Counted from the whole stretch's first letter, positions 50,976-61,411 are shown. The stretch is 62,443 bases of DNA, filler included, from a bacterium (GCA_046331705.1; 4 parts of 4 records of this genome joined end to end with filler, not necessarily neighbours in it), one strand, 5' to 3'. Numbers and translations are program-made. Notes: generated by a model not told the origin, from the letters alone.

Positions 50976-51848
50976 TCACGTCGCCGTGGGGCCGAGGCGG
51001 CACACCACCACGTCGGGCGGTGCGTAGGTGCGAAACGGCACCTCGAGCGCGCCGATGCCGCGGCTCACGATGAGCGCGCCGTGGTGGGGAGGCGCGAGCT
51101 GGAAGCGGCCGTGAAAGTAGGGCGCGTTGTACTTCGACTGCGGGATCCAGAGCGGACGACCACCCGGCAGCGCCAGATGGCCGCCGTGGGTGTGGCCGCA
51201 GACGGCGACGTCGAAGCGATGACGATCGATCGCGCGCAGCGTGCACGGCGAGTGGATGAGCAGGATGCGCGTGCCGTTGGCGTTCGCGAACGCGCGGTCG
51301 GGATCGGGGTCTCCGCTCCACCCCTCGTCGACGCCGCACACCGACACGTGGTCGAAGGGCGCCGGAAGCGCCGCGGAGTCGTTGATGAGCATCTGCACGC
51401 CCGCGGCCTCCAGGCGGCGGCTGATGTGCCGATAGTCGGTCCACAGGTCGTGGTTGCCGAGCACGGCGAATTTCCCGAAGGGCGCCCGCATGCGCTCGGC
51501 GGCCCGCGCGATCGGTTCGATGAAGGCCGCTTCGATGAAGATGAAGTCGCCGCCGAGGAGCAGGACGTCGGGCTCCGCGGCGGCCATGCGCTCGAAGGCC
51601 AGCTCGATGAGCTTGGGATGCGTCGTCGGACCGGCGTGAAAGTCGGAGGCGAACGCGAACGTGAGCGGCCGCAAGCCCGCCGGCCACTCGCGGGCGACCA
51701 CGTCGTGAGCGATCGTGTCGACCACCCGCTGCGCACCCAGCGCGTACGCGAGCCGCGCGGGCCAGCCGCTGGCCGTGAGCCGGAGGAAGAGCGGCTCGGC
51801 GAACGTGCGCCACCACCCGTAATGTCTTCCGCGGCCGAGCTGGGTCAT
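50976..51848 (-). CDS. Metallophosphoesterase (YkuE/YaeI-like)
   Basis: SDFH, GGDF, GNHD, HSP, GHTHGGH, VSRGIG. Confidence 0.88.
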   Translation of the reverse strand: MTQLGRGRHYGWWRTFAEPLFLRLTASGWPARLAYALGAQRVVDTIAHDVVAREWPAGLRPLTFAFASDFHAGPTTHPKLIELAFERMAAAEPDVLLLGGDFIFIEAAFIEPIARAAERMRAPFGKFAVLGNHDLWTDYRHISRRLEAAGVQMLINDSAALPAPFDHVSVCGVDEGWSGDPDPDRAFANANGTRILLIHSPCTLRAIDRHRFDVAVCGHTHGGHLALPGGRPLWIPQSKYNAPYFHGRFQLAPPHHGALIVSRGIGALEVPFRTYAPPDVVVCRLGPTAT

Positions 51849-51946
51849 GGGAGTGGGCGAGGAGCGCCACGCGTGCGCGAGTTGCGCGAAGGCGCGGAGC
51901 TTAGCGCGGGCGCACGCCCGTCGATAACGCCGCGGCGCGCCGGGAA

Positions 51947-52726
51947 TCAGCGCTGCGGCGCGGGACGGGGTCGGATCAAGAACCCGCCGCTCGCCAGCGG
52001 CACGCGTTCCACGGCGGTGCGGTACGCGCGCTCGAGCCGCTCCTCGGTGAGGATCTCGGCGGGCGTGCCGCAGCCCACCAGGCGGTGCTCGGCGACCAGC
52101 GCGACACGGTCGGCGAACTCCGCGGCCAGGTTGAGGTCGTGCAACGACGCGATCACGGTGAGCCCGTCCCGCGCGAGGCTCCGCACCAGCGCCAAGATCG
52201 TCATCTGGAAGTGGATGTCGAGGTGGGAGGTCGGCTCGTCGAGAAGCAGCACGCGCGGTTCCTGGGCGAGCGCCATCGCCAGCCACACGCGCTGACGCTC
52301 GCCGCTCGAGAGCGTGGCCACCCGGCGGTCGGCGAGCGGGGTGCACTCGGTGCGTTCGAGCGCCGCGTCGAGCACCTCGCGATCGCGCGCACCGAGGCTC
52401 TGGAATCGCCCGAGGTGCGGCAGCCGGCCCAGCGCCACCGCTTCCCACACGCGTAGCTCGTCGGGGCAGCGGATCGATTGCTCGACGGAGGCGAGGCGCG
52501 TCGCGATCGTGCGGGGAGCCAGCGACGCGAGCGGCTCGCGGTCGAGGTAGACGGCCCCGCGAGCCGGCTCGATGAGCCCGGAGATCGCGCGCAAGAGCGT
52601 GGTCTTGCCGGCGCCGTTCGGCCCCACCAGCGCCATCAGCTCGCCGGCGCGCAGCTCGAGCGAGACGCCCGCGAGCACGGGTGTCCCGTTGTAGCGAAGC
52701 TCCACGTCGTCGATGCGCACGATCAC
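51947..52726 (-). CDS. btuD: Cobalamin/iron-siderophore ABC transporter ATPase (BtuD/FhuC-type)
   Basis: GPNGAGKTT, LSSGERQRV, LLLDEPT, HDLNLA; B12 substrate inferred from context. Confidence 0.8.
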   Translation of the reverse strand: MIVRIDDVELRYNGTPVLAGVSLELRAGELMALVGPNGAGKTTLLRAISGLIEPARGAVYLDREPLASLAPRTIATRLASVEQSIRCPDELRVWEAVALGRLPHLGRFQSLGARDREVLDAALERTECTPLADRRVATLSSGERQRVWLAMALAQEPRVLLLDEPTSHLDIHFQMTILALVRSLARDGLTVIASLHDLNLAAEFADRVALVAEHRLVGCGTPAEILTEERLERAYRTAVERVPLASGGFLIRPRPAPQR

Positions 52727-52742: not shown

Positions 52743-53798
52743 TCACGCTGCGTCGCCCGCCCAGGCGCGCCGCCCCGCCGAGGTGCGGCGACGCAGCAAG
52801 TACAGGAAGAAAGGCGCGCCCAGGAGCGCGGTGAGGATTCCGACCGGGATCTCGGTGGGCTTGGCGAGGGTGCGCGCCGCGGTGTCGCACACGATCAGCA
52901 GGATCGCGCCCGCGAGCGCCGCCGCCGGCACCAGCGCGCGGTGGTCGGGCCCCACCACCAGCCGGAGCGCGTGGGGGACGATCAGCCCGATGAAGCCGAT
53001 GGTACCCGCGGCGGCGACGCACGACGCGGTCAGCAGGGCGGCCGCGGCCAGGAGCGCGCGCTGCACCCACGCGGGGCTCACTCCCAGATGGGCGGCCATC
53101 GCGTCGCCCAGCGCCAGCGCGTCGAGATCGCGCGCGAACGCCAGCAGCACCGGGACGCACACCGCCACCACCAGCGCCAGCGGCCACACCTGCGCCCATT
53201 GCGCCCCCGCCAGCCCGCCCATCATCCAAAACACGATCCCGCGCGTCTGATCGGGACTCGACACCACGATGCAGAAGCTGGTGACCGACGCGAACAGCGC
53301 GGAGAGCGCGACTCCCGCCAGCACCAGCGTCGCGCCGTCGCCATCACCGCGATTCATGCGGCCGATGCGGTACACGATCGCCACGGCGAGCAAGCTGCCG
53401 GCGAAGGCCGCGAACGGCAGCACTCCCGGCAGCTTCCGCTCCAGGCCGAGCGCGATGACCGCCGCGGCGCCCATCGTCGCCCCGCTCGAAAGCCCGAGGA
53501 GATAGGGCTCCGCGAGCGGATTGCGGAAGATGCCCTGCATCACCGTCCCCGCCGCCGCGAGCGCCAAGCCCACCAGCCCAGCCAGCGCGACGCGCGGCAG
53601 CCGCACGTCGCGCACGATGCGGGTCTGGGTGTCCGTGGCGGCGGGCTCGCCGTCGCCACGCGAGAGGGCCTGCCAGACGATCCCGGCCACGCGCGCCGGC
53701 GGGATCGACACCGTGCCGGTCCCCACCCCGGCGACGAAGGTCGCCACCAGGAGTCCGCCCAGGATCGCCAGCGTGACGCGCGCCGAACGTCGCCTCAT
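52743..53798 (-). CDS. btuC: FecCD/BtuC-family ABC permease
   Basis: RLPRV, QGIFRNPLAEPYLLG.SSGA, GTIGFIGLIVPH, EIPVGILTALLGAPFF. Confidence 0.82.
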   Translation of the reverse strand: MRRRSARVTLAILGGLLVATFVAGVGTGTVSIPPARVAGIVWQALSRGDGEPAATDTQTRIVRDVRLPRVALAGLVGLALAAAGTVMQGIFRNPLAEPYLLGLSSGATMGAAAVIALGLERKLPGVLPFAAFAGSLLAVAIVYRIGRMNRGDGDGATLVLAGVALSALFASVTSFCIVVSSPDQTRGIVFWMMGGLAGAQWAQVWPLALVVAVCVPVLLAFARDLDALALGDAMAAHLGVSPAWVQRALLAAAALLTASCVAAAGTIGFIGLIVPHALRLVVGPDHRALVPAAALAGAILLIVCDTAARTLAKPTEIPVGILTALLGAPFFLYLLRRRTSAGRRAWAGDAA

Positions 53799-54760
53799 GG
53801 CGTCGCCCCGCTGGTGGGACGCGGCGGGGGGGACGAGAAGGGCGCGGCGGCGGGGGTGGGCATGGCGGGCGTCGCGCCCGCGTCGGCGAAAGCCTCGGGG
53901 TGCAGCCAGACGGCGAGCGTGCGCAAGGTGTCGGGAAATCGCGTCGAGACCCAGGAGGAGGGCCGCATCGCGAGCACTCGCCCGGCCTTGACCGCGCGCA
54001 GGCTCGACACCACCTCGTGGGAGCGCGTCCACTCGAGCTCGGACGGATCGACGACCAGCGCATCGGGATCGCTGCGCAAGATCTCCTCGTAGCTCACGCG
54101 GTGATAGCCGGCGGGCGCGGCGAACACGTTCTCGGCGCCCGCCTTGGCGAGCAGCTCGTGATCGGGAGTGCCGACGCCCGCGGTGAGCGGCGGCGAGCCG
54201 GGCAAGGGGTAGAGCAGGGCGACGCGTGGCCGTGGGCGGCCCGCGACCCGCGACTCGATCGCGGCGACCTCGGTGGTGAGCCGATTCACCAGGCCCGGCG
54301 CCGCGCTGCTCTCGCCGCGCACGGCGATCTCCACCTGATCGATGGTGCGCAGCACGCCGGCCAGGTCGTCGGACGGCGCCGGTGTGTAGACGAGCAGCCC
54401 TGCCGCCTCCAAGCCGTCGCGCGACGGACCGAATGCGCCCAGCACCAGGTCCGGCTCGAGTGCGAGCGTGCGCTCGATGCTCACCGCGTTCACGTCACCG
54501 ACGCGCGTGATCGAGGCGAAGCGCTCGGGAGCCTCGGGAGTCGCGGCGATCCCGACGATGCGCTCGGCCAGGCCGAGCTCGTCGAGGATCTGCGCGAAGA
54601 GCGCCGGCCCCGCCACCACCACGCGTTTCGCCGCCTTGGGGATGCGGACGACGCGGCCGCGATCGTCCCGGAGCTCGACGGGAAACCCGGCCTGCGCGAT
54701 GCGCGCGCCCAGCGTCAGCGCGCAGACCGCGAACAGTCCCCAGCGGCGCGCGCGCGTCAT
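53795..54760 (-). CDS. btuF: BtuF-type periplasmic binding protein
   Basis: Signal peptide; FPVELRDDRGRVV.I......RVV, ERTLALEPDLV, AGAENVF, SYEEILRSDPD, AVKAGRV. Confidence 0.78.
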   Translation of the reverse strand: MTRARRWGLFAVCALTLGARIAQAGFPVELRDDRGRVVRIPKAAKRVVVAGPALFAQILDELGLAERIVGIAATPEAPERFASITRVGDVNAVSIERTLALEPDLVLGAFGPSRDGLEAAGLLVYTPAPSDDLAGVLRTIDQVEIAVRGESSAAPGLVNRLTTEVAAIESRVAGRPRPRVALLYPLPGSPPLTAGVGTPDHELLAKAGAENVFAAPAGYHRVSYEEILRSDPDALVVDPSELEWTRSHEVVSSLRAVKAGRVLAMRPSSWVSTRFPDTLRTLAVWLHPEAFADAGATPAMPTPAAAPFSSPPPRPTSGATP

Positions 54761-55395
54761 GACGTGGCTCGTCCCGCCGTCCGGCCGTGGTCCCGCGGTG
54801 CGCGCTCGAACGAGGGAGTGGGCACGATGTCCATGAGGGCTCGCCAGAGCCCCGCGGCCGCGCGACTCGCGTCGCCCGCGAACACGATCACCACCCAATC
54901 GCCGACCTCCGAGGGCCCGAGCGCGCTTTCGACGCGAGCGGCGTCGTGGGCGTTGCGGCGGCTGAAGCTCGCGTCCACGTCCGTCAGCTTGAGCCCGGAC
55001 GGCTCGCGAGAGAGCAGCAAGATACCCGTGCCGCCCTCGCGAACGGCCGCGTCGCGCAGTTGCCAGGTCTTGGGCGCGCGCGTCACGCCCCGCACCAGCG
55101 CGCCGCAGGCATGACGGTCGAGCCCCATCTCGACCAGTGCCAGCTCGGCGACGCGCGGCACGCGCGCGAAGAACTCGCCGAGCGCGGCGCTCGCGGCGTC
55201 GCTCAGGAAGGTGCCGGGCTTGGCGAACTCGACCCAGCCCAGCGCCTCGAGCTTCTCGAGCTCGGTGCGCACCACGCTCTCGGTCCAATGAGTCCGTTCC
55301 ACGAGGGTGCGGCGTCCCAGCGGGCCACGGCGCAGATGGAAGAGCAGGCCGAGCTCGAGGTGGGGCCTTTCCAACGGTTCTTTGTGGGGTATCAT
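54757..55395 (-). CDS. Winged-helix + DUF4443 (PH0730-like) putative transcription factor
   Basis: GPLGRRTL.ER....ESVVRT.LEKL...G.V.....GTFLS (wHTH); QLRDAAVREGGTG.LLL and GDWVVIVFA match my recollection of the archaeal PH0730/DUF4443 pattern; AAGGTGG upstream of ATG 55395; ATGA overlap with btuF. Confidence 0.78.
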   Translation of the reverse strand: MIPHKEPLERPHLELGLLFHLRRGPLGRRTLVERTHWTESVVRTELEKLEALGWVEFAKPGTFLSDAASAALGEFFARVPRVAELALVEMGLDRHACGALVRGVTRAPKTWQLRDAAVREGGTGILLLSREPSGLKLTDVDASFSRRNAHDAARVESALGPSEVGDWVVIVFAGDASRAAAGLWRALMDIVPTPSFERAPRDHGRTAGRATS

Positions 55396-55402
55396 ATCCC
55401 AC
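55384..55402. promoter_or_regulatory. Palindromic operator, copy 1 (overlaps the regulator start codon)
   Basis: GTGGGGTA-TCA-TATCCCAC; one mismatch from a perfect inverted repeat. Confidence 0.75.
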
Positions 55403-55464
55403 CTTCCACCTGGGACCGCGAGGGCGACGGCGCTTCGGTGCGCCGTCGTTTCGTCGGCGGCACG

Positions 55465-55483
55465 GTGGGATAATCTATCCCAC
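55465..55483. promoter_or_regulatory. Palindromic operator, copy 2 (upstream of btuB)
   Basis: GTGGGATA-ATC-TATCCCAC; perfect 8-bp arms; contains the -10-like GATAAT. Confidence 0.8.
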
Positions 55484-55514
55484 ATCGCCAGGAACACAAG
55501 CCATCGAAGTCGTC

Positions 55515-57650
55515 ATGTCGAATCTCCCGCCATCGACAGTGAGGTCCACGACGCGTCCGCGCGCGAGCGCGCCGGCGCGCGGCGCCGCGGCGTGCGATCG
55601 CGCGCGATCCACGACGTGCCGGTGGCGCACCGGGGCGATCGCGCTGGTGCTCGCGTTCCACGCCCTGAATGCCGGCGCGGAGGACGCGCCGGACTCGCTC
55701 ACGGAGACGGAGACGGTCGTGGTGGAGCAGTCCGCGCCACCGCCGGATACGGGCAGCCGCGACGTGTCGGCGTTCGCCACCATCGTGCCTCGCGACCAGT
55801 TCGCGGGCACGGGCGCCGACCTCGGCGAGGTGCTGGAGCGAACCGTCGGCGTCCAGGTGCGGAACTTCGGCGGCCTCGGCGACCTGTCGACGATCTCGAT
55901 TCGCGGCTCGACCGCCGAGCAGGTCGAGGTCTTCCTGGACGGGATCCCGCTCAATCGCGCGCTCGGCGGCGGCGTCGACCTGTCGACGCTGCCCCTCGGG
56001 AACGTGGAGCGGATCGAGGTCTATCGCGGCACGGCGCCGAGCGGTCTCGCGCTGACCAATCTCGGTGGCGCGGTCGAGCTGGTGACGTCGCCCGCTTACG
56101 GCGACGACGAGACCGCGGTCTCGGTGGGCGGCGGAAGCTTCGGCACCCTCGATACCTCCGCGTCGCTCCGGCGCGGCTCGGGGCCGTTCCATCTCTTCGC
56201 GAGCGCGGGCTACGCGCGCAGCGAAGGAGATTTCCGTTTCCGGGACGACAACGGCACGCCCAAGAACGGCGCCGACGACGCGGAGGTGGCGCGGCGCAAC
56301 AACGATTTCCAGAGTGTTGCGTTCCTCGGCAAGGGCGACACCGATCTTCCGGCGGACCTGAGCCTGACGCTCGCCGACGATTTCTTCTGGAAGGACGAGG
56401 GCGTCCCCGGGATCGGCAGCAATCAATCCGACTCGGCGCGGCTCACCTCGCTGCGCGATCTGGCGCATGCGCTGCTACGCGGCCGCGGCTGGCTCGACGG
56501 TGCGCTCGATCTGGAGGAACGGCTCGAGCTCGGGTTCCAGCGTGAGGCGTTTCGCGACATCGAGGGCGAGATCGGCGTCGGCGCGCAGGACACGCGCAAC
56601 ACCACGTCGACCTATGCGTCGGTCTCGCAGGTGACGCACCGGCCGATCCAGGATCTGGCGATCACGGCGCTCGCCGATCTCCGGCACGAGGAATTCCGCC
56701 CCGCCGACGAGCTGCTCGAGCCGGCCGATGGCCCGACCAGTCGCCGCAACGCCGCGCATCTGGTGCTGGAGGGCGAATCGCGACTCTTCGGTGAGCGCTT
56801 GGTTCTCGATCCCGCGCTGCGTTTCGCGTACGTCGAGGACGAGCGTCGCCCGTTCGGGCCATTCGTCACCGCCGGTCCCCAGAACGCCGTCGACCGGCGC
56901 GTCACCTGGAAGGTGGGTGCGCGCGGCTATCTCGCCGAGTGGCTGGAGGCGCGCGGCAACGCCTCGACCTCGTTTCGCGCGCCGAGCTTCACCGAGCTCT
57001 TCGGCGATCGCGGGTCGATCATCGGCAACCCCAAGCTCGACCCGGAGCGCGGCTTCAGCTGGGACATCGGCCTCGCGCTGGTGCCGCCCGATCTCGACTG
57101 GCTGCGCGCCGTGCGCATCGAGGCGATCTACTTCTTCAGTGACGTCGACGATCGGATCCTCTTCATCCAGAACAGCCAGCGCACGGCGGTGGCGGAGAAC
57201 ATCGCCGCGTCGCGCAGCCAGGGGGTGGAGCTGACCGCGGCCGCGCTGCTTCCTGCCGGCTTTCGCGCCAGCGCCAACGCCACCTTCCAGCAGACCGAAG
57301 ACCTCTCGCCGGCACCGAGCCGCCACGGCAACGATCTGCCCGGGCAGCCGCGCAACGACGTCGCCACCCGGCTCGAATGGCGCGAGAAGCCGGTCACGTT
57401 GTTCACCGAGCTCGAGTACATCGGCTCGAATTTCCTGGATCCGGCGAACCTCGAGGCGGTCGACGATCGCGTGCTGGTCTCGGCGGGCTTCAAGGTCCGC
57501 GTCCTCGACGGGATCACGCTCGCGTTCGACGCGCGCAACCTGGCCGACGATCGCGTGACCGACGTGATCGGCTATCCGCTGCCGGGCCGCAGCTTCTTCG
57601 GCTCGGTCGAGTGGCGGCTCGTCGACGAGGACGCCCCGAACGATGAATGA
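55515..57650 (+). CDS. btuB: TonB-dependent receptor, probable cobalamin transporter
   Basis: TonB-box-like ETVVV; plug ISIRG....QV.VFLDGIP, VERIEVYRG, GGAV.LVT; FRAPSFTELF; GYPLPGRSF; lies upstream of cobU-cobT-cobS. Confidence 0.8.
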   Translation: MSNLPPSTVRSTTRPRASAPARGAAACDRARSTTCRWRTGAIALVLAFHALNAGAEDAPDSLTETETVVVEQSAPPPDTGSRDVSAFATIVPRDQFAGTGADLGEVLERTVGVQVRNFGGLGDLSTISIRGSTAEQVEVFLDGIPLNRALGGGVDLSTLPLGNVERIEVYRGTAPSGLALTNLGGAVELVTSPAYGDDETAVSVGGGSFGTLDTSASLRRGSGPFHLFASAGYARSEGDFRFRDDNGTPKNGADDAEVARRNNDFQSVAFLGKGDTDLPADLSLTLADDFFWKDEGVPGIGSNQSDSARLTSLRDLAHALLRGRGWLDGALDLEERLELGFQREAFRDIEGEIGVGAQDTRNTTSTYASVSQVTHRPIQDLAITALADLRHEEFRPADELLEPADGPTSRRNAAHLVLEGESRLFGERLVLDPALRFAYVEDERRPFGPFVTAGPQNAVDRRVTWKVGARGYLAEWLEARGNASTSFRAPSFTELFGDRGSIIGNPKLDPERGFSWDIGLALVPPDLDWLRAVRIEAIYFFSDVDDRILFIQNSQRTAVAENIAASRSQGVELTAAALLPAGFRASANATFQQTEDLSPAPSRHGNDLPGQPRNDVATRLEWREKPVTLFTELEYIGSNFLDPANLEAVDDRVLVSAGFKVRVLDGITLAFDARNLADDRVTDVIGYPLPGRSFFGSVEWRLVDEDAPNDE

Positions 57651-58872
57651 AACCCCTCTCGATGCGAATCCGCATCCAACAACGCGCGGCGCCATCGGCA
57701 CGGCCGCGTTTCGGAGAGTCACGATGCAGGGCATGGAAACTTCGTTGCACGGAACCTGGGCGCGCTGGCTCGCGATCGGCACGATCGTGGTCGCGGGCTG
57801 CTCGAGCGGCGGTGGCGACGGTCCCGGCGTGGGCAGCACGGCGAACACCGCCGTGCTCTCCACCACGGACTTCACCACCGGCCGCCTCGCCACGGTGAGC
57901 CTGGAAGCGCCGTACACGGTGGGGCAGAACCTGGAGGAGCTGGGCTCGGACGCGGTGCTGCGCGTCTTCGACGGTCAGGTCGACGTGGTGAACCGCTCGG
58001 TGGGCGAGAACGTGCAGGTGATCGACCCGGCGTCGGGCTTCGCCACGGTCGCACAGTTCAGCACCGGTGACGGGTCGAATCCGCAGGACGTGCTGGTGCG
58101 CGGCACCACGGCGTTCGTGCCGCGCTACGAGGCGGGCTCGCTCGACGATCCGTACAACGACGTGCTGCTCATGAGCCTCACCGACGGCTCGACGCTCGGC
58201 CGCATCGACCTCTTGCCGTACGCAGACACCGCGACCGATCCCGGCATGCTGCCGCGCCCAGCGGCGATCCTCGAGGTCGGCGGGCTGGTGTGGGTGATGC
58301 TGCAGCAGATCAACGCGAGCTTCTCGAGCTATGGCCAGGGGTGCTTCGTCATCATCGATCCGGCCACGCGCAGCGTGGTGGGCGCGGTGGTTCTCGACGT
58401 CCAGAGCCCGTTCGCGGCGGAGGTCTTCGGTGACGCGATCTACGTGGCGGCGAACGGCGTCTTCTCGATCCCGCCCACGCTCTCGGGCGGGATCGTGAAG
58501 GTGGACACCCAGACGCGCACGGCGACGCTGCTCGTCGACGACGACGACCTCGGCTCGAACGTGAGCGACGTGGTGGTGGTCTCGGAGTCGAAGGGCTACC
58601 TGGTGGTGGCGAACGTGGATGACCAGGGCACGCCCGCGGGCACCAACGACGTCCGCACGTTCGATCCGCGCACCGGCGCCGTCGGCGCCAAGGTCTACAC
58701 CTGCGGCGGCTACCTACCCGACATCGCCTGGAACGGCGGCACGACCCTGGTGGCCACGTGCCAGGACTTCGCCACGCCGGGAGTGGTGCTGATCGACACG
58801 ACCTCGGACGCGGTGGTGGCTGGCCCGCTCGACACCGGTCTGCCGCCGTTCAGCATCGGGTTCCTGAAGTGA
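57643..58872 (+). CDS. YncE-like beta-propeller lipoprotein (possible BtuG analogue)
   Basis: Lipobox VAGC followed by a Gly/Ser linker; propeller-like repeats (VIDP, SNPQD, VLIDT); true start may be 57724 or 57733. Confidence 0.65.
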   Translation: MNETPLDANPHPTTRGAIGTAAFRRVTMQGMETSLHGTWARWLAIGTIVVAGCSSGGGDGPGVGSTANTAVLSTTDFTTGRLATVSLEAPYTVGQNLEELGSDAVLRVFDGQVDVVNRSVGENVQVIDPASGFATVAQFSTGDGSNPQDVLVRGTTAFVPRYEAGSLDDPYNDVLLMSLTDGSTLGRIDLLPYADTATDPGMLPRPAAILEVGGLVWVMLQQINASFSSYGQGCFVIIDPATRSVVGAVVLDVQSPFAAEVFGDAIYVAANGVFSIPPTLSGGIVKVDTQTRTATLLVDDDDLGSNVSDVVVVSESKGYLVVANVDDQGTPAGTNDVRTFDPRTGAVGAKVYTCGGYLPDIAWNGGTTLVATCQDFATPGVVLIDTTSDAVVAGPLDTGLPPFSIGFLK

Positions 58873-59417
58873 GTCCCGCTTCGAAGCGCGTCGTGCTGGT
58901 GGGCGGCGGCGTGCGTTCGGGGAAGAGTGCGTTCGCGTTGCGCCGCGCCTCGGAGCTCGGGGCGCGGCGCGTCTTCCTGGCCACGGCGGAAGCGCTGGAC
59001 GACGAGATGACGGCGCGGATCACGCGCCATCAGATGGAGCGCGGAGCCTCGTTCGTGACCGTGGAGGAGCCGCTCGCCGTTCCCGAGCGGCTCGACGCGC
59101 TGACCGACGTGGACGTGGTGCTGCTCGATTGCCTGACGCTCTGGCTCTCGAACCTGGTGGTGCGCGGCGACGACGAGCGCCGCGTGGAAGCCGCGGTGGA
59201 AGAGCTGGCGCGGGTGCTCGCGACGCGCCGCTTCCACGCGGTGGTGGTGACCAACGAGGTCGGCATGGGTCTGGTGCCCGAATCGGCGTTGGGGCGGCTC
59301 TTTCGCGACGTCGCGGGGCGCGCGCACCAGCGCCTCGCCGCGCTTGCCGACGAGGTTCACTTCGCCGCGCTCGGGGTGATGCTCACGCTCAAGCCGAGCC
59401 CGCTGGTGGCCAGGTGA
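58869..59417 (+). CDS. cobU: Bifunctional adenosylcobinamide kinase / cobinamide-phosphate guanylyltransferase
   Basis: GGVRSGKS, ATA...DDEM..RI..H...R, DCLTLWLSN, VTNEVG.GLVP...LGR.FRD..G; GTGA overlap. Confidence 0.95.
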   Translation: MSPASKRVVLVGGGVRSGKSAFALRRASELGARRVFLATAEALDDEMTARITRHQMERGASFVTVEEPLAVPERLDALTDVDVVLLDCLTLWLSNLVVRGDDERRVEAAVEELARVLATRRFHAVVVTNEVGMGLVPESALGRLFRDVAGRAHQRLAALADEVHFAALGVMLTLKPSPLVAR

Positions 59418-59588: not shown

Positions 59589-60665
59589 ATGACCGATTCG
59601 CTTCTCGCTCGCACCACGCTGGCGATCGTGGCGCCCGACGAGTCGATCGCGGCGGCCACGCAGCACGTCCTCGACTTCAAGACCAAGCCACGCGGAAGCC
59701 TGGGACGGCTGGAGGCGCTCGCGTGCCGAATCGCAGCCATGCGGGCCGTGGCGCGGCCGCCGCTTCCCACCAAGGCCATCGTGGTGATCGGCGCGGACCA
59801 CGGTGTGGCCGCGGAAGGCGTCAGCGCCTATCCGAGCGAGGTCACGCGCCAGATGCTCCTCAACTTCGCGGCGGGCGGGGCCGCGATCAACGTGCTCGCG
59901 CGGCGCGCTGGGGCGCGGGTGCTGGTGGTGGACATGGGCGTGCGCGAGCCGCTCCCCGCAGACGCCGGTGTGCGTGCCGAGCGGATCGGTCCCGGAACGC
60001 GGAGCTTCTTGCGCGAGCCGGCCATGACGCGCGGCCAAGCCGTTCAGGCGATCGAGGTCGGTATCCGCATCGCGAACGAGCTCGCCGACGAGGGCGTGGA
60101 TCTGCTGGGTCTGGGCGAGATGGGGATCGGCAACACCACGGCGTCGACGGCGCTGGTGGCCGCGTTCACGGGCGCCGAGCCCGAGCGCGTCACCGGGCGC
60201 GGCACCGGCATCGACGACGCCGGCTGGCTGCGCAAGGTGGGTGTGGTGCGCAGCGCGCTCGCGTTCCACGGGCTCGGCAAGGGCGCGGCGCCGGGCGACG
60301 CGCTCGACGTGCTGGCGTGCGTCGGCGGGTTCGAGATCGCCGGGCTCGCAGGGGTCGGGCTCGGAGCCGCCGCCCGGCGCGTACCGGTGCTGCTCGACGG
60401 CTTCATCTCGACGGCGGCGGGGCTCGTCGCGGCGCGGCTCGCGCCGCTCGCCTCCGCCTATTTCCTCGCGGCGCACCGCTCGGTCGAGGTGGGGCACCGG
60501 GTCGCGCTCGACGCGCTCGGAGTGATGCCGCTCCTGGATCTCGATCTCAGGCTCGGCGAGGGCACCGGTGCCGCGCTCGCCATGAGCTTGATCGACGCCT
60601 CGCTCGCGATCCTCCACGAGATGGCGACCTTCGAGTCCGCGGGCGTCGCGGACACGGGTCGCTGA
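59589..60665 (+). CDS. cobT: Nicotinate-nucleotide:dimethylbenzimidazole phosphoribosyltransferase
   Basis: TKPRGSLGRLE, ADHGV..EGVSAYP..VT, GEMGIGNTT, GGFEIA, LRLGEGTGA, EMATF. Confidence 0.96.
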   Translation: MTDSLLARTTLAIVAPDESIAAATQHVLDFKTKPRGSLGRLEALACRIAAMRAVARPPLPTKAIVVIGADHGVAAEGVSAYPSEVTRQMLLNFAAGGAAINVLARRAGARVLVVDMGVREPLPADAGVRAERIGPGTRSFLREPAMTRGQAVQAIEVGIRIANELADEGVDLLGLGEMGIGNTTASTALVAAFTGAEPERVTGRGTGIDDAGWLRKVGVVRSALAFHGLGKGAAPGDALDVLACVGGFEIAGLAGVGLGAAARRVPVLLDGFISTAAGLVAARLAPLASAYFLAAHRSVEVGHRVALDALGVMPLLDLDLRLGEGTGAALAMSLIDASLAILHEMATFESAGVADTGR

Positions 60666-60667
60666 GC

Positions 60668-61411
60668 ATGCTCGCTCGCGCCCGGCGCCGGCTGGCGCTC
60701 GCGATCACCTTCCTGACCCGCGCGCCCGTCCCGGCGGGCGCCGCGGACGCCGACGACCTCGCCGCGAGCTTGGTCTTCTTTCCGGTGGTCGGTCTCGCGC
60801 TGGGCACGCTGCTGGTGGCCGTGGCGGCGCTGCTGCCGCCAGAGCTGCCGGCCGCCGCGCGGGGAGCGGTCGTGGTGGCGACGCTGGCGCTGGTGACCGG
60901 AGGGCTTCACCTCGACGGGCTCGCCGACGTGTTCGATGCGCTGGGCGGCGGGCGTGGCTCACGCGAGCGGATGCTCGCGATCCTGGACGATCCGCGGATC
61001 GGCGCCCACGGCGCCGCGGCGCTGGTGCTGGTGATCGTGGCCAAGACCTCGCTCGTGGGCGCGCTGGCGGCGGCCGATCAGCGCTGGGCGCTGCTCGCGT
61101 TTCCCGTCGCCGCGCGAGCGGCGATCGTGCCGCTGGTCGTGCTCTTTCCCGCGGCGCGCCGCGAGGGCTTGGCGCACGCGTTTCACGAGCGCGCGCGCGG
61201 CGGGCACGTCGCGGGAGCGAGCTTTCTCGCCGCGCTCGTCCTCGGCGCGATCGGCGCGCAGTGCGCGGGGCCGACGCTCGCGGCCATGCTGGCGGCGCTC
61301 GCGATCGCGAGCTGGATGCGCTTTCGCCTGGGCGGATTGAACGGCGACGTCTACGGCGCCGCCCTCGAGCTCGCCGAAGTCGCCTTCTTGGCCGGCGCCC
61401 TCAGCCGCTGA
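60668..61411 (+). CDS. cobS: Adenosylcobinamide-GDP ribazoletransferase (cobalamin synthase)
   Basis: FLTRAP, TGGLHLDGLAD.FD, MLAILDDPRIGAHG, GGLNGDVYGA..E..E. Confidence 0.95.
   Translation: MLARARRRLALAITFLTRAPVPAGAADADDLAASLVFFPVVGLALGTLLVAVAALLPPELPAAARGAVVVATLALVTGGLHLDGLADVFDALGGGRGSRERMLAILDDPRIGAHGAAALVLVIVAKTSLVGALAAADQRWALLAFPVAARAAIVPLVVLFPAARREGLAHAFHERARGGHVAGASFLAALVLGAIGAQCAGPTLAAMLAALAIASWMRFRLGGLNGDVYGAALELAEVAFLAGALSR

Follow-up and report, generated by a model that had tools for sequence, protein, structure and literature searches.

Two conserved 19-bp palindromes as probable operators of a winged-helix DUF4443 protein between divergent corrinoid uptake and salvage operons

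Riboswitches are the textbook means of controlling B12 supply genes, and only a small number of proteins are known to regulate B12 uptake. The CarH/LitR-type transcription factors have cobalamin-dependent activity; they are MerR-type proteins that carry the B12-binding domain PF02310 and sense light by means of B12. NiaR, composed of a helix-turn-helix and a 3H domain, is a vitamin-responsive repressor of vitamin supply genes. Here we describe a control region in a bacterial genome (GCA_046331705.1) in which two 19-bp palindromes, termed P1 and P2, lie between two divergent operons for corrinoid uptake and salvage, the leftward of which begins with a gene for a 212-residue regulator that joins an N-terminal winged helix-turn-helix to a DUF4443 domain (PH0730 family). 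The window, that is the whole stretch of DNA that was analyzed, comprises 62,443 nucleotides, filler included, and its positions 32395-62443 are a single 30-kb contig. We argue that P1 and P2 are probably operators of the adjacent winged-helix DUF4443 protein, which would act as a local repressor of the two operons with a corrinoid as its co-repressor.

Compared with this locus, the cobalamin riboswitch regulons (RF00174) have the same target set (btuB-type receptors, btuFCD and cob/cbi genes) and presumably follow the same signal by the same logic, with shut-off when B12 is plentiful, but a riboswitch is an RNA leader whereas the system in the window consists of DNA palindromes and a protein. 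The nearest solved relative of the regulator is PH0730 of Pyrococcus horikoshii (PDB 2P8T), which has the same two-domain architecture and fold (Z 21.2 with 180 of 184 residues aligned and a root-mean-square deviation, rmsd, of 2.8; Foldseek E 1.2e-12; profile E 1.3e-16) at about 21% identity, and whose entry is titled 'hypothetical protein' and gives no function, operator or ligand. NiaR resembles the regulator in that a small winged helix is joined to a compact alpha/beta ligand domain, but it belongs to a different Pfam family and its ligand is nicotinic acid. Unlike the CarH/LitR-type proteins, the regulator has no PF02310 match (Pfam, E up to 0.01) and is tied to B12 supply genes. A literature search turned up no publication dealing with DUF4443 or with a B12-uptake regulator of this kind, and the excerpts of PMC8123684 and PMC2667541 make no mention of one.

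P1 (positions 55384..55402, no strand assigned; GTGGGGTATCATATCCCAC, that is GTGGGGTA-TCA-TATCCCAC) and P2 (55465..55483, no strand assigned; GTGGGATAATCTATCCCAC, that is GTGGGATA-ATC-TATCCCAC) are 81 bp apart from start to start, as a preliminary description of two near-identical inverted repeats at this locus had it. Both have G+C-rich outer arms (GTGGGA / TCCCAC) around an A+T-rich centre, and they occupy an intergenic region of ~120 nt with ~70% G+C. P1 spans the regulator gene's ATG (55395-55393, minus strand) together with the end of its Shine-Dalgarno sequence, the ATG being a start codon backed by the conserved N-terminus of homologues, while P2 ends 31 nt before the ATG of the divergent receptor gene (55515) and holds a GATAAT on the plus strand (55469-55474). 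The earlier placement of one repeat on the regulator's own start codon, and of the other, containing GATAAT, about 30 nt ahead of 'btuB', was thus accurate. The motif GTGGGRTANNNTAYCCCAC with up to two mismatches had exactly two matches in the window, P1 and P2, versus 0.01 expected, and 0 of 100 shuffled windows had two or more, which agrees with the description's failure to notice a further copy. In the assembly (8.17 Mb, 95.7% complete), the same search returned P1, P2 and one G+C-rich place with two mismatches, while the backwards control returned one; this extra place (C1:243981) looks like chance, the control count being similar. With a weight matrix derived from the 12 orthologous sites, the two sites scored 32.1 and 31.0 bits and the next best place in the genome 15.3 bits. 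A chance origin of the palindromes is rejected by the expected count, the shuffles and this gap in the weight-matrix scores.

Both palindromes are conserved within the phylum. Across the six genomes of the phylum in the species set, each genome has one regulator orthologue, with 64-89% identity, and all six have kept both palindromes, one on the ATG and the other 54-81 bp upstream (81, 80, 60, 54, 55 and 66 bp). When the six control regions are aligned, the palindromes stand out as invariant blocks, separated by a spacer that differs in sequence and length; the divergent receptor gene is kept wherever contigs allow, and so are btuF, btuC and btuD downstream of the regulator. The spacer of the window also contains an 8-bp G+C-rich hairpin, GACGGCGC-TTCGGT-GCGCCGTC, at 55426-55447; the fold of the 97-nt leader has a z of -2.65, and the hairpin is absent from the five orthologous spacers.

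The site recurs in a distant phylum. A scan of a genome collection gave 19 loci, five of the window's phylum and 14 in metagenome-assembled genomes labelled Bipolaricaulota, Acetothermia or Fraserbacteria, with one labelled Thermotogae (referred to below as Bipolaricaulota-type). GTGGGA-N7-TCCCAC begins 7 nt before the regulator ATG in all 14 (the L016 site ends in CAG), about 10 nt past the -10 element of a clear TTGnnn-17-TAnAAT promoter, at roughly +3 to +21, and there is a single site per regulator operon. In the four annotated loci the regulator gene is followed by a binding-protein gene and, further on, by a second binding-protein gene and BtuR/CobO, with FecCD and ABC (ATP-binding cassette) ATPase genes each present in three of the four. 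Overall identity of the regulators between the two phyla is about 40%, while the helix-turn-helix stretch LGRRTLV..TG.TESVVRTEL is almost invariant, as is, very nearly, its recognition-helix part TESVVRTEL. The motif is thus conserved upstream of orthologues, with both sites in 6 of 6 genomes of the phylum and the core on the ATG in 14 of 14 loci of the other, and this comparison favors the preliminary proposal that the palindromes serve as operators for the adjacent winged-helix protein.

The assignment of P1 and P2 as operators therefore rests on their being unique, conserved in two phyla and tied both to the regulator gene and to B12 genes. The leftward operon runs from the regulator gene (54757..55395, minus strand) to genes for a BtuF-like periplasmic binding protein (Peripla_BP_2; 53795..54760, minus), whose ATG overlaps the regulator stop codon by 4 nt, a BtuC-like permease of the FecCD type (52743..53798, minus), whose start overlaps the btuF stop by 4 nt, and a BtuD-like ABC ATPase (51947..52726, minus). 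Rightward lie, in order, the genes for a TonB-dependent receptor with Plug and barrel domains (55515..57650, plus), a lipoprotein with a BtuG-like beta-propeller fold (57733..58872, plus), CobU (adenosylcobinamide kinase/guanylyltransferase; 58869..59417, plus, with the likeliest start among several GTGs), CobT (nicotinate-nucleotide-dimethylbenzimidazole phosphoribosyltransferase; 59589..60665, plus) and CobS (adenosylcobinamide-GDP ribazoletransferase; 60662..61411, plus). The receptor is called 'btuB' from context only, because it scores far below the BtuB equivalog cut-offs (133 versus 599.7 bits for TIGR01779 and 100.6 versus 836 bits for NF007926). Both operons are devoted to corrinoid capture, import and nucleotide-loop salvage; their corrinoid specificity follows from CobU, CobT and CobS, each of which exceeds its NCBIfam cut-off, and from the lipoprotein, whose model matches BtuG-cobalamin structures.

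This lipoprotein (379-409 aa) matched no Pfam family, and its model (predicted local distance difference test, pLDDT, 91.3) found BtuG1, BtuG2 or BT1954 entries, most of them cobalamin-bound, in 9 of the 10 best Foldseek rows, with E values of 7e-14 to 8e-12 and TM scores by target of 0.73-0.77. BtuG is the surface B12-binding lipoprotein of Bacteroides, a seven-bladed beta-propeller encoded beside the B12 receptor; the protein in the window resembles it in its predicted fold, has a lipobox-like motif (AGCSS) and is encoded directly 3' of the receptor gene. On the basis of the model it looks like a BtuG-like partner outside Bacteroidota. Its relatives by sequence are in records labelled Deltaproteobacteria, Acidobacteriota and Polarisedimenticolia.

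Promoter-like hexamers in the control region coincide with the palindromes, whose centres are the only -10-like hexamers of the region. P2 carries them on both strands, GATAAT on the plus strand and TAGATT on the minus strand (55477-55472), and the centre of P1 reads TATCAT on the plus strand. In the direction of the regulator, the best sigma-70-like match puts the -10 element inside P2 in 6 of 6 genomes, with a TTGnnn located 16-17 nt upstream in five of the six; in the window the candidate -35 element is TTGTGT (55494..55499, minus), 16 nt from TAGATT and identified by consensus match only. In the direction of the receptor, GATAAT in P2 has a poor -35 element, and the best match in 6 of 6 genomes is TTTCCA-16-TATCAT (55368..55395, plus; likewise a consensus match only), an alternative promoter whose -10 element lies in P1 and which overlies coding sequence. 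The layout could accordingly be either a two-way promoter at P2 or a pair of facing promoters with one -10 element in each palindrome. Bacterial promoters that fire both ways from overlapping -10 hexamers are treated in the excerpts of PMC12825309 and PMC10268837, and P2 resembles such pseudo-symmetrical, bidirectional promoters in having overlapping -10-like hexamers on both strands; for the receptor operon, however, the layout with a -10 element in each palindrome is the closer match to the consensus. A 151-nt contig from an RNA run covers 55302-55452, across P1 and short of P2, with DNA carry-over possible and its ends uninformative.

Under either layout, regulator bound to P1 and P2, with the GTGGGA / TCCCAC arms as the likely contacts of two recognition helices, would cover the A+T-rich centres and shut out RNA polymerase. 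Occupancy of P1 would in addition block, at the DNA level, the region of the regulator's own ribosome-binding site and so result in autoregulation. Autorepression together with repression of the btuB-cob operon, as the preliminary description had it, is thus a natural reading of sites that overlie candidate core promoters and a start codon. The signal would most likely be a corrinoid within the cell that binds the DUF4443 domain and serves as co-repressor, and the system would do the work of a cobalamin riboswitch, an element not found in the genus. The sequence comparisons establish the sites, their conservation, their ties to this gene family and to B12 genes, and their placement on consensus promoter elements; that the protein binds them, does so as a dimer, represses instead of activating and responds to a corrinoid is inferred.

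The regulator matches Pfam DUF4443 (PF14544) over residues 96-188 with 30.7 bits versus a gathering cut-off of 27, and PF14544 appears in the precomputed domain lists of all close homologues; an NCBIfam search gave no match. Its N-terminus stays just below the cut-offs of CggR_N (28.5 versus 30 bits) and PH0730-like_N (22.6 versus 30.2 bits), and residues 8-80 match winged-helix regulators by fold (Z 10-12) in a model with a pLDDT of 92.4, in which residues 1-10 are disordered. CggR/SorC proteins have the DNA-binding domain closest in sequence and fold (CggR_N as above; PDB 2O0M, 8R3G and 7OYK), but the regulator falls outside this family, as only its N-terminal domain matches and DUF4443 takes the place of the SorC sugar-phosphate-binding domain. 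It also falls outside the MarR family (MarR_2, 19.7 bits versus a cut-off of 27), with which it has the winged-helix fold alone in common. Apart from 2P8T, a structural look-alike of the C-terminal domain is the GAD insertion domain of bacterial AspRS (Z 11.6, 117 residues aligned, rmsd 3.0), and NiaR/TM1602 comes second-best in Foldseek (E 6e-5 to 2e-4, whole-chain TM 0.25-0.31, rmsd >11), a resemblance at the level of the fold only, with no match of the regulator to the Pfam 3H family. The models suggest that DUF4443 is a compact alpha/beta domain of the kind that binds small ligands in NiaR. A homodimer prediction for the regulator scored 0.36, the mark being 0.42, a result that speaks neither for nor against a dimer.

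Further sites link the motif to B12 genes in relatives. Genome G001, of the sister genus, has exactly two RF00174 riboswitches, the first leading cbiX-DUF3209-cbiD and the second leading a second TonB receptor gene that is divergent from cobD/cbiB, and operators of the sequence ATGGGATATCCTATCCCAC or GTGGGATATGTTATCCCAT (L119 3318-3336 and L120 1559-1577) each terminate 8 nt upstream of a riboswitch 5' end, with a TTGAC(A/T) hexamer 7 nt upstream of each operator. This layout suggests that protein and RNA control act in series, and if true it would be a natural case of two-layer control of one pathway. In G002, tandem operators (L118 3974-4014), 22 bp from centre to centre, lie upstream of another TonB-dependent receptor gene. 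In three of five Bipolaricaulota-type genomes there is a second site, a perfect GTGGGATA-N3-TATCCCAC, located directly after a promoter of the TTGAyy-17-TAtAAT type (read by eye) and ahead of a gene for a secreted, beta-rich protein of 437-463 aa that ends in Phe and belongs to no Pfam family (L112 166-1557, minus; L113 1545-2855, plus; L116 133-1521, minus). This protein may be an outer-membrane component of corrinoid uptake. Other near-matches in relatives are G+C-rich, as frequent as in controls and look like chance, and a match at G005:C86 lies inside an open reading frame for a sulfatase-modifying enzyme. The preliminary suggestion that the motif could be used to map the regulon therefore fared differently by genome: in relatives the motif pointed to further B12 loci, while in the window's genome it marks no place beyond P1 and P2, so that no metE, nrd or cbi target emerged there. 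For these uncultured groups, the motif offers a way of locating B12 genes.

Cobalamin riboswitches are scarce where the regulator is found. RF00174, RF01482 and RF01689 had no match in the window's genome, and the remaining four genomes of the genus gave no RF00174 match. The window itself gave no Rfam match at gathering score, and the interval 54600-56000, searched at E up to 1, gave no Rfam family apart from two chance-level matches. Among 121 sampled Bipolaricaulota-type genomes the regulator was present in 56 and RF00174 in one; five regulator-bearing genomes scored more fully had no RF00174, and the 14 Bipolaricaulota-type loci had no Rfam match. The regulator could explain how lineages without a cobalamin riboswitch still regulate B12 import. 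The window's genome (G000) has 85 matches to the PF02310 B12-binding domain, 81 of them over the cut-off and mostly in frames of 450-900 aa, and no match to CbiC, which marks corrin-ring synthesis. Control over import is thus expected to be important to this organism, which on the evidence of its gene content appears to be very B12-hungry and to rely on uptake and salvage.

A wider interpretation, more tentative and to which we give somewhat less than even weight, is that DUF4443, a GAD/3H-like domain, is an unrecognized corrinoid sensor and the regulator an old protein counterpart of the B12 riboswitch, with GTGGGA-N7-TCCCAC as operator and B12 as co-repressor, acting in series with riboswitches or replacing them according to lineage. 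The lineages in which riboswitches would have been replaced are the window's genus and most of the Bipolaricaulota-type phylum, with action in series in some others. The twin-operator divergent layout, the BtuG-like gene and the local regulon are specific to the window, and the operators in series with riboswitches are specific to the sister genus. A defined operator and a small protein with a solved relative (2P8T) make the function of DUF4443 directly testable, the prediction being corrinoid-dependent binding to the 19-bp site.

Several observations weigh against P1 and P2 being operators of a corrinoid-responsive repressor. The window's genome offers no second locus that replicates the link between site and B12 genes, and the compared genomes are relatives, so that the counts overstate independence. 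P1 is imperfect in the window's phylum (A/C or A/A at positions 6/14), and its overlap with the Shine-Dalgarno sequence and with codons confounds part of its conservation. For the promoter hexamers there are only consensus matches, which are compatible with two layouts; the -35 element of the P1-centred promoter lies within conserved coding sequence, and its conservation is not independent evidence. The riboswitch searches scored part of the candidates, and many genomes, including the window's assembly at 95.7%, are incomplete. DUF4443 has no known corrinoid-binding fold or motif. Finally, an archaeal-type branch of DUF4443 proteins (L031-L110, with the signature GPxPSF...GLGEGxVRT...EQRD) does not share these associations: GTGGG-N9-CCCAC occurred in none of the 80 metagenome loci of this branch, and BLAST searches of their neighbourhoods with the proteins of the window and of L021 found BtuC or BtuR within 5 kb in only 3 of 80 and no match to CobU, CobT or CobS within the same distance. 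In 25 of the 28 archaeal-type loci examined upstream there was no perfect palindrome with arms of at least 7. Because adjacency is seen in only 3 of 80 loci and the motif is absent, the B12 link cannot be extended to this branch by adjacency, and a function is not to be generalized from adjacency to all DUF4443 proteins.

The same features bear on the alternative that the operators and the protein work as described and the signal is not a corrinoid, being instead cobalt, the lower ligand/alpha-ribazole or a nutritional cue, or that the protein is a plain autoregulator setting a fixed low level of transporter. The structure of DUF4443, in which no B12-binding fold or motif is recognized, would suit such a signal, as would NiaR, the nearest ligand-binding look-alike, which binds a small pyridine acid, and the rarity with which the archaeal-type branch adjoins B12 genes (3 of 80). 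Every good site, however, lies at corrinoid genes (btuFCD-btuR, cobUTS with the BtuG-like gene, and both riboswitch operons of G001), and corrinoid supply is the common denominator of all targets. We regard a non-corrinoid signal as unlikely, and corrinoid as the better candidate for the co-repressor.

DNA looping between P1 and P2, which the preliminary description had raised as a possibility, is improbable and is set aside here. Two similar sites 81 bp apart, one at each end of a control region, would suit looping of the intervening DNA, but the spacings in the six genomes correspond to 7.7, 7.6, 5.7, 5.1, 5.2 and 6.3 turns at 10.5 bp per turn and so have no common helical phase. Moreover, one site per operon suffices in the distant phylum, and the tandem sites of G002 are only 22 bp apart.

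Codon usage at the regulator start shows that the constraint on P1 acts on nucleotides. Across 20 loci from the two phyla, codon 3 is xCC in 20 of 20 despite encoding three different residues, Ser (14), Pro (3) and Thr (3), and codon 4 reads CAC in 19 and CAG in the remaining one, with no CAT, while the next conserved His is CAC in nine and CAT in ten. As codons 3-4 are fixed in their nucleotides and lie in a disordered tail, the right arm of P1 is kept as DNA or RNA rather than as protein. Alternatively, the palindromes might act as RNA hairpins in leaders, through translational masking, processing or stability, and it fits such a role that P1 overlaps the Shine-Dalgarno sequence and AUG in 20 of 20 loci and that P2, if transcribed, can form an 8-bp hairpin. 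P1 RNA, on the other hand, would have only a 5-bp stem with a 9-nt loop (local fold -10.3 kcal/mol, z -1.5), the arms are invariant across two phyla rather than covarying, with positions 6/14 unpaired in the window's phylum, and the extra sites of relatives are at promoters, either directly downstream of -35/-10 boxes or separated by 8 nt from a riboswitch 5' end. A winged-helix DNA-binding protein is the product of the adjacent gene, and Rfam, searched at E up to 1, returned only the two chance-level matches for the region. Action as RNA is thus very unlikely. That a different, unlinked transcription factor reads the sites and the DUF4443 protein is a mere neighbour, as the distance of some G001 and G002 sites from the regulator gene might suggest, is highly improbable given that a site sits on the regulator's own start codon in 20 of 20 loci of two phyla, that motif core and recognition helix are conserved together and that there is one gene copy per genome of the phylum.

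Additional genes accompany the transport operons. In Bipolaricaulota-type loci, a second Peripla_BP_2 protein that has no N-terminal signal region is encoded between btuD and btuR (L021 8500-9408, with equivalents in L015, L016 and L024); it could be a cytoplasmic corrinoid-handling protein. In the window, btuD is followed by a gene for a calcineurin-like phosphoesterase (50976-51878, minus), as it is in G002 (L013 9493-10584), and one Bipolaricaulota-type locus (L015) has a Metallophos_2 gene in its divergent cluster.

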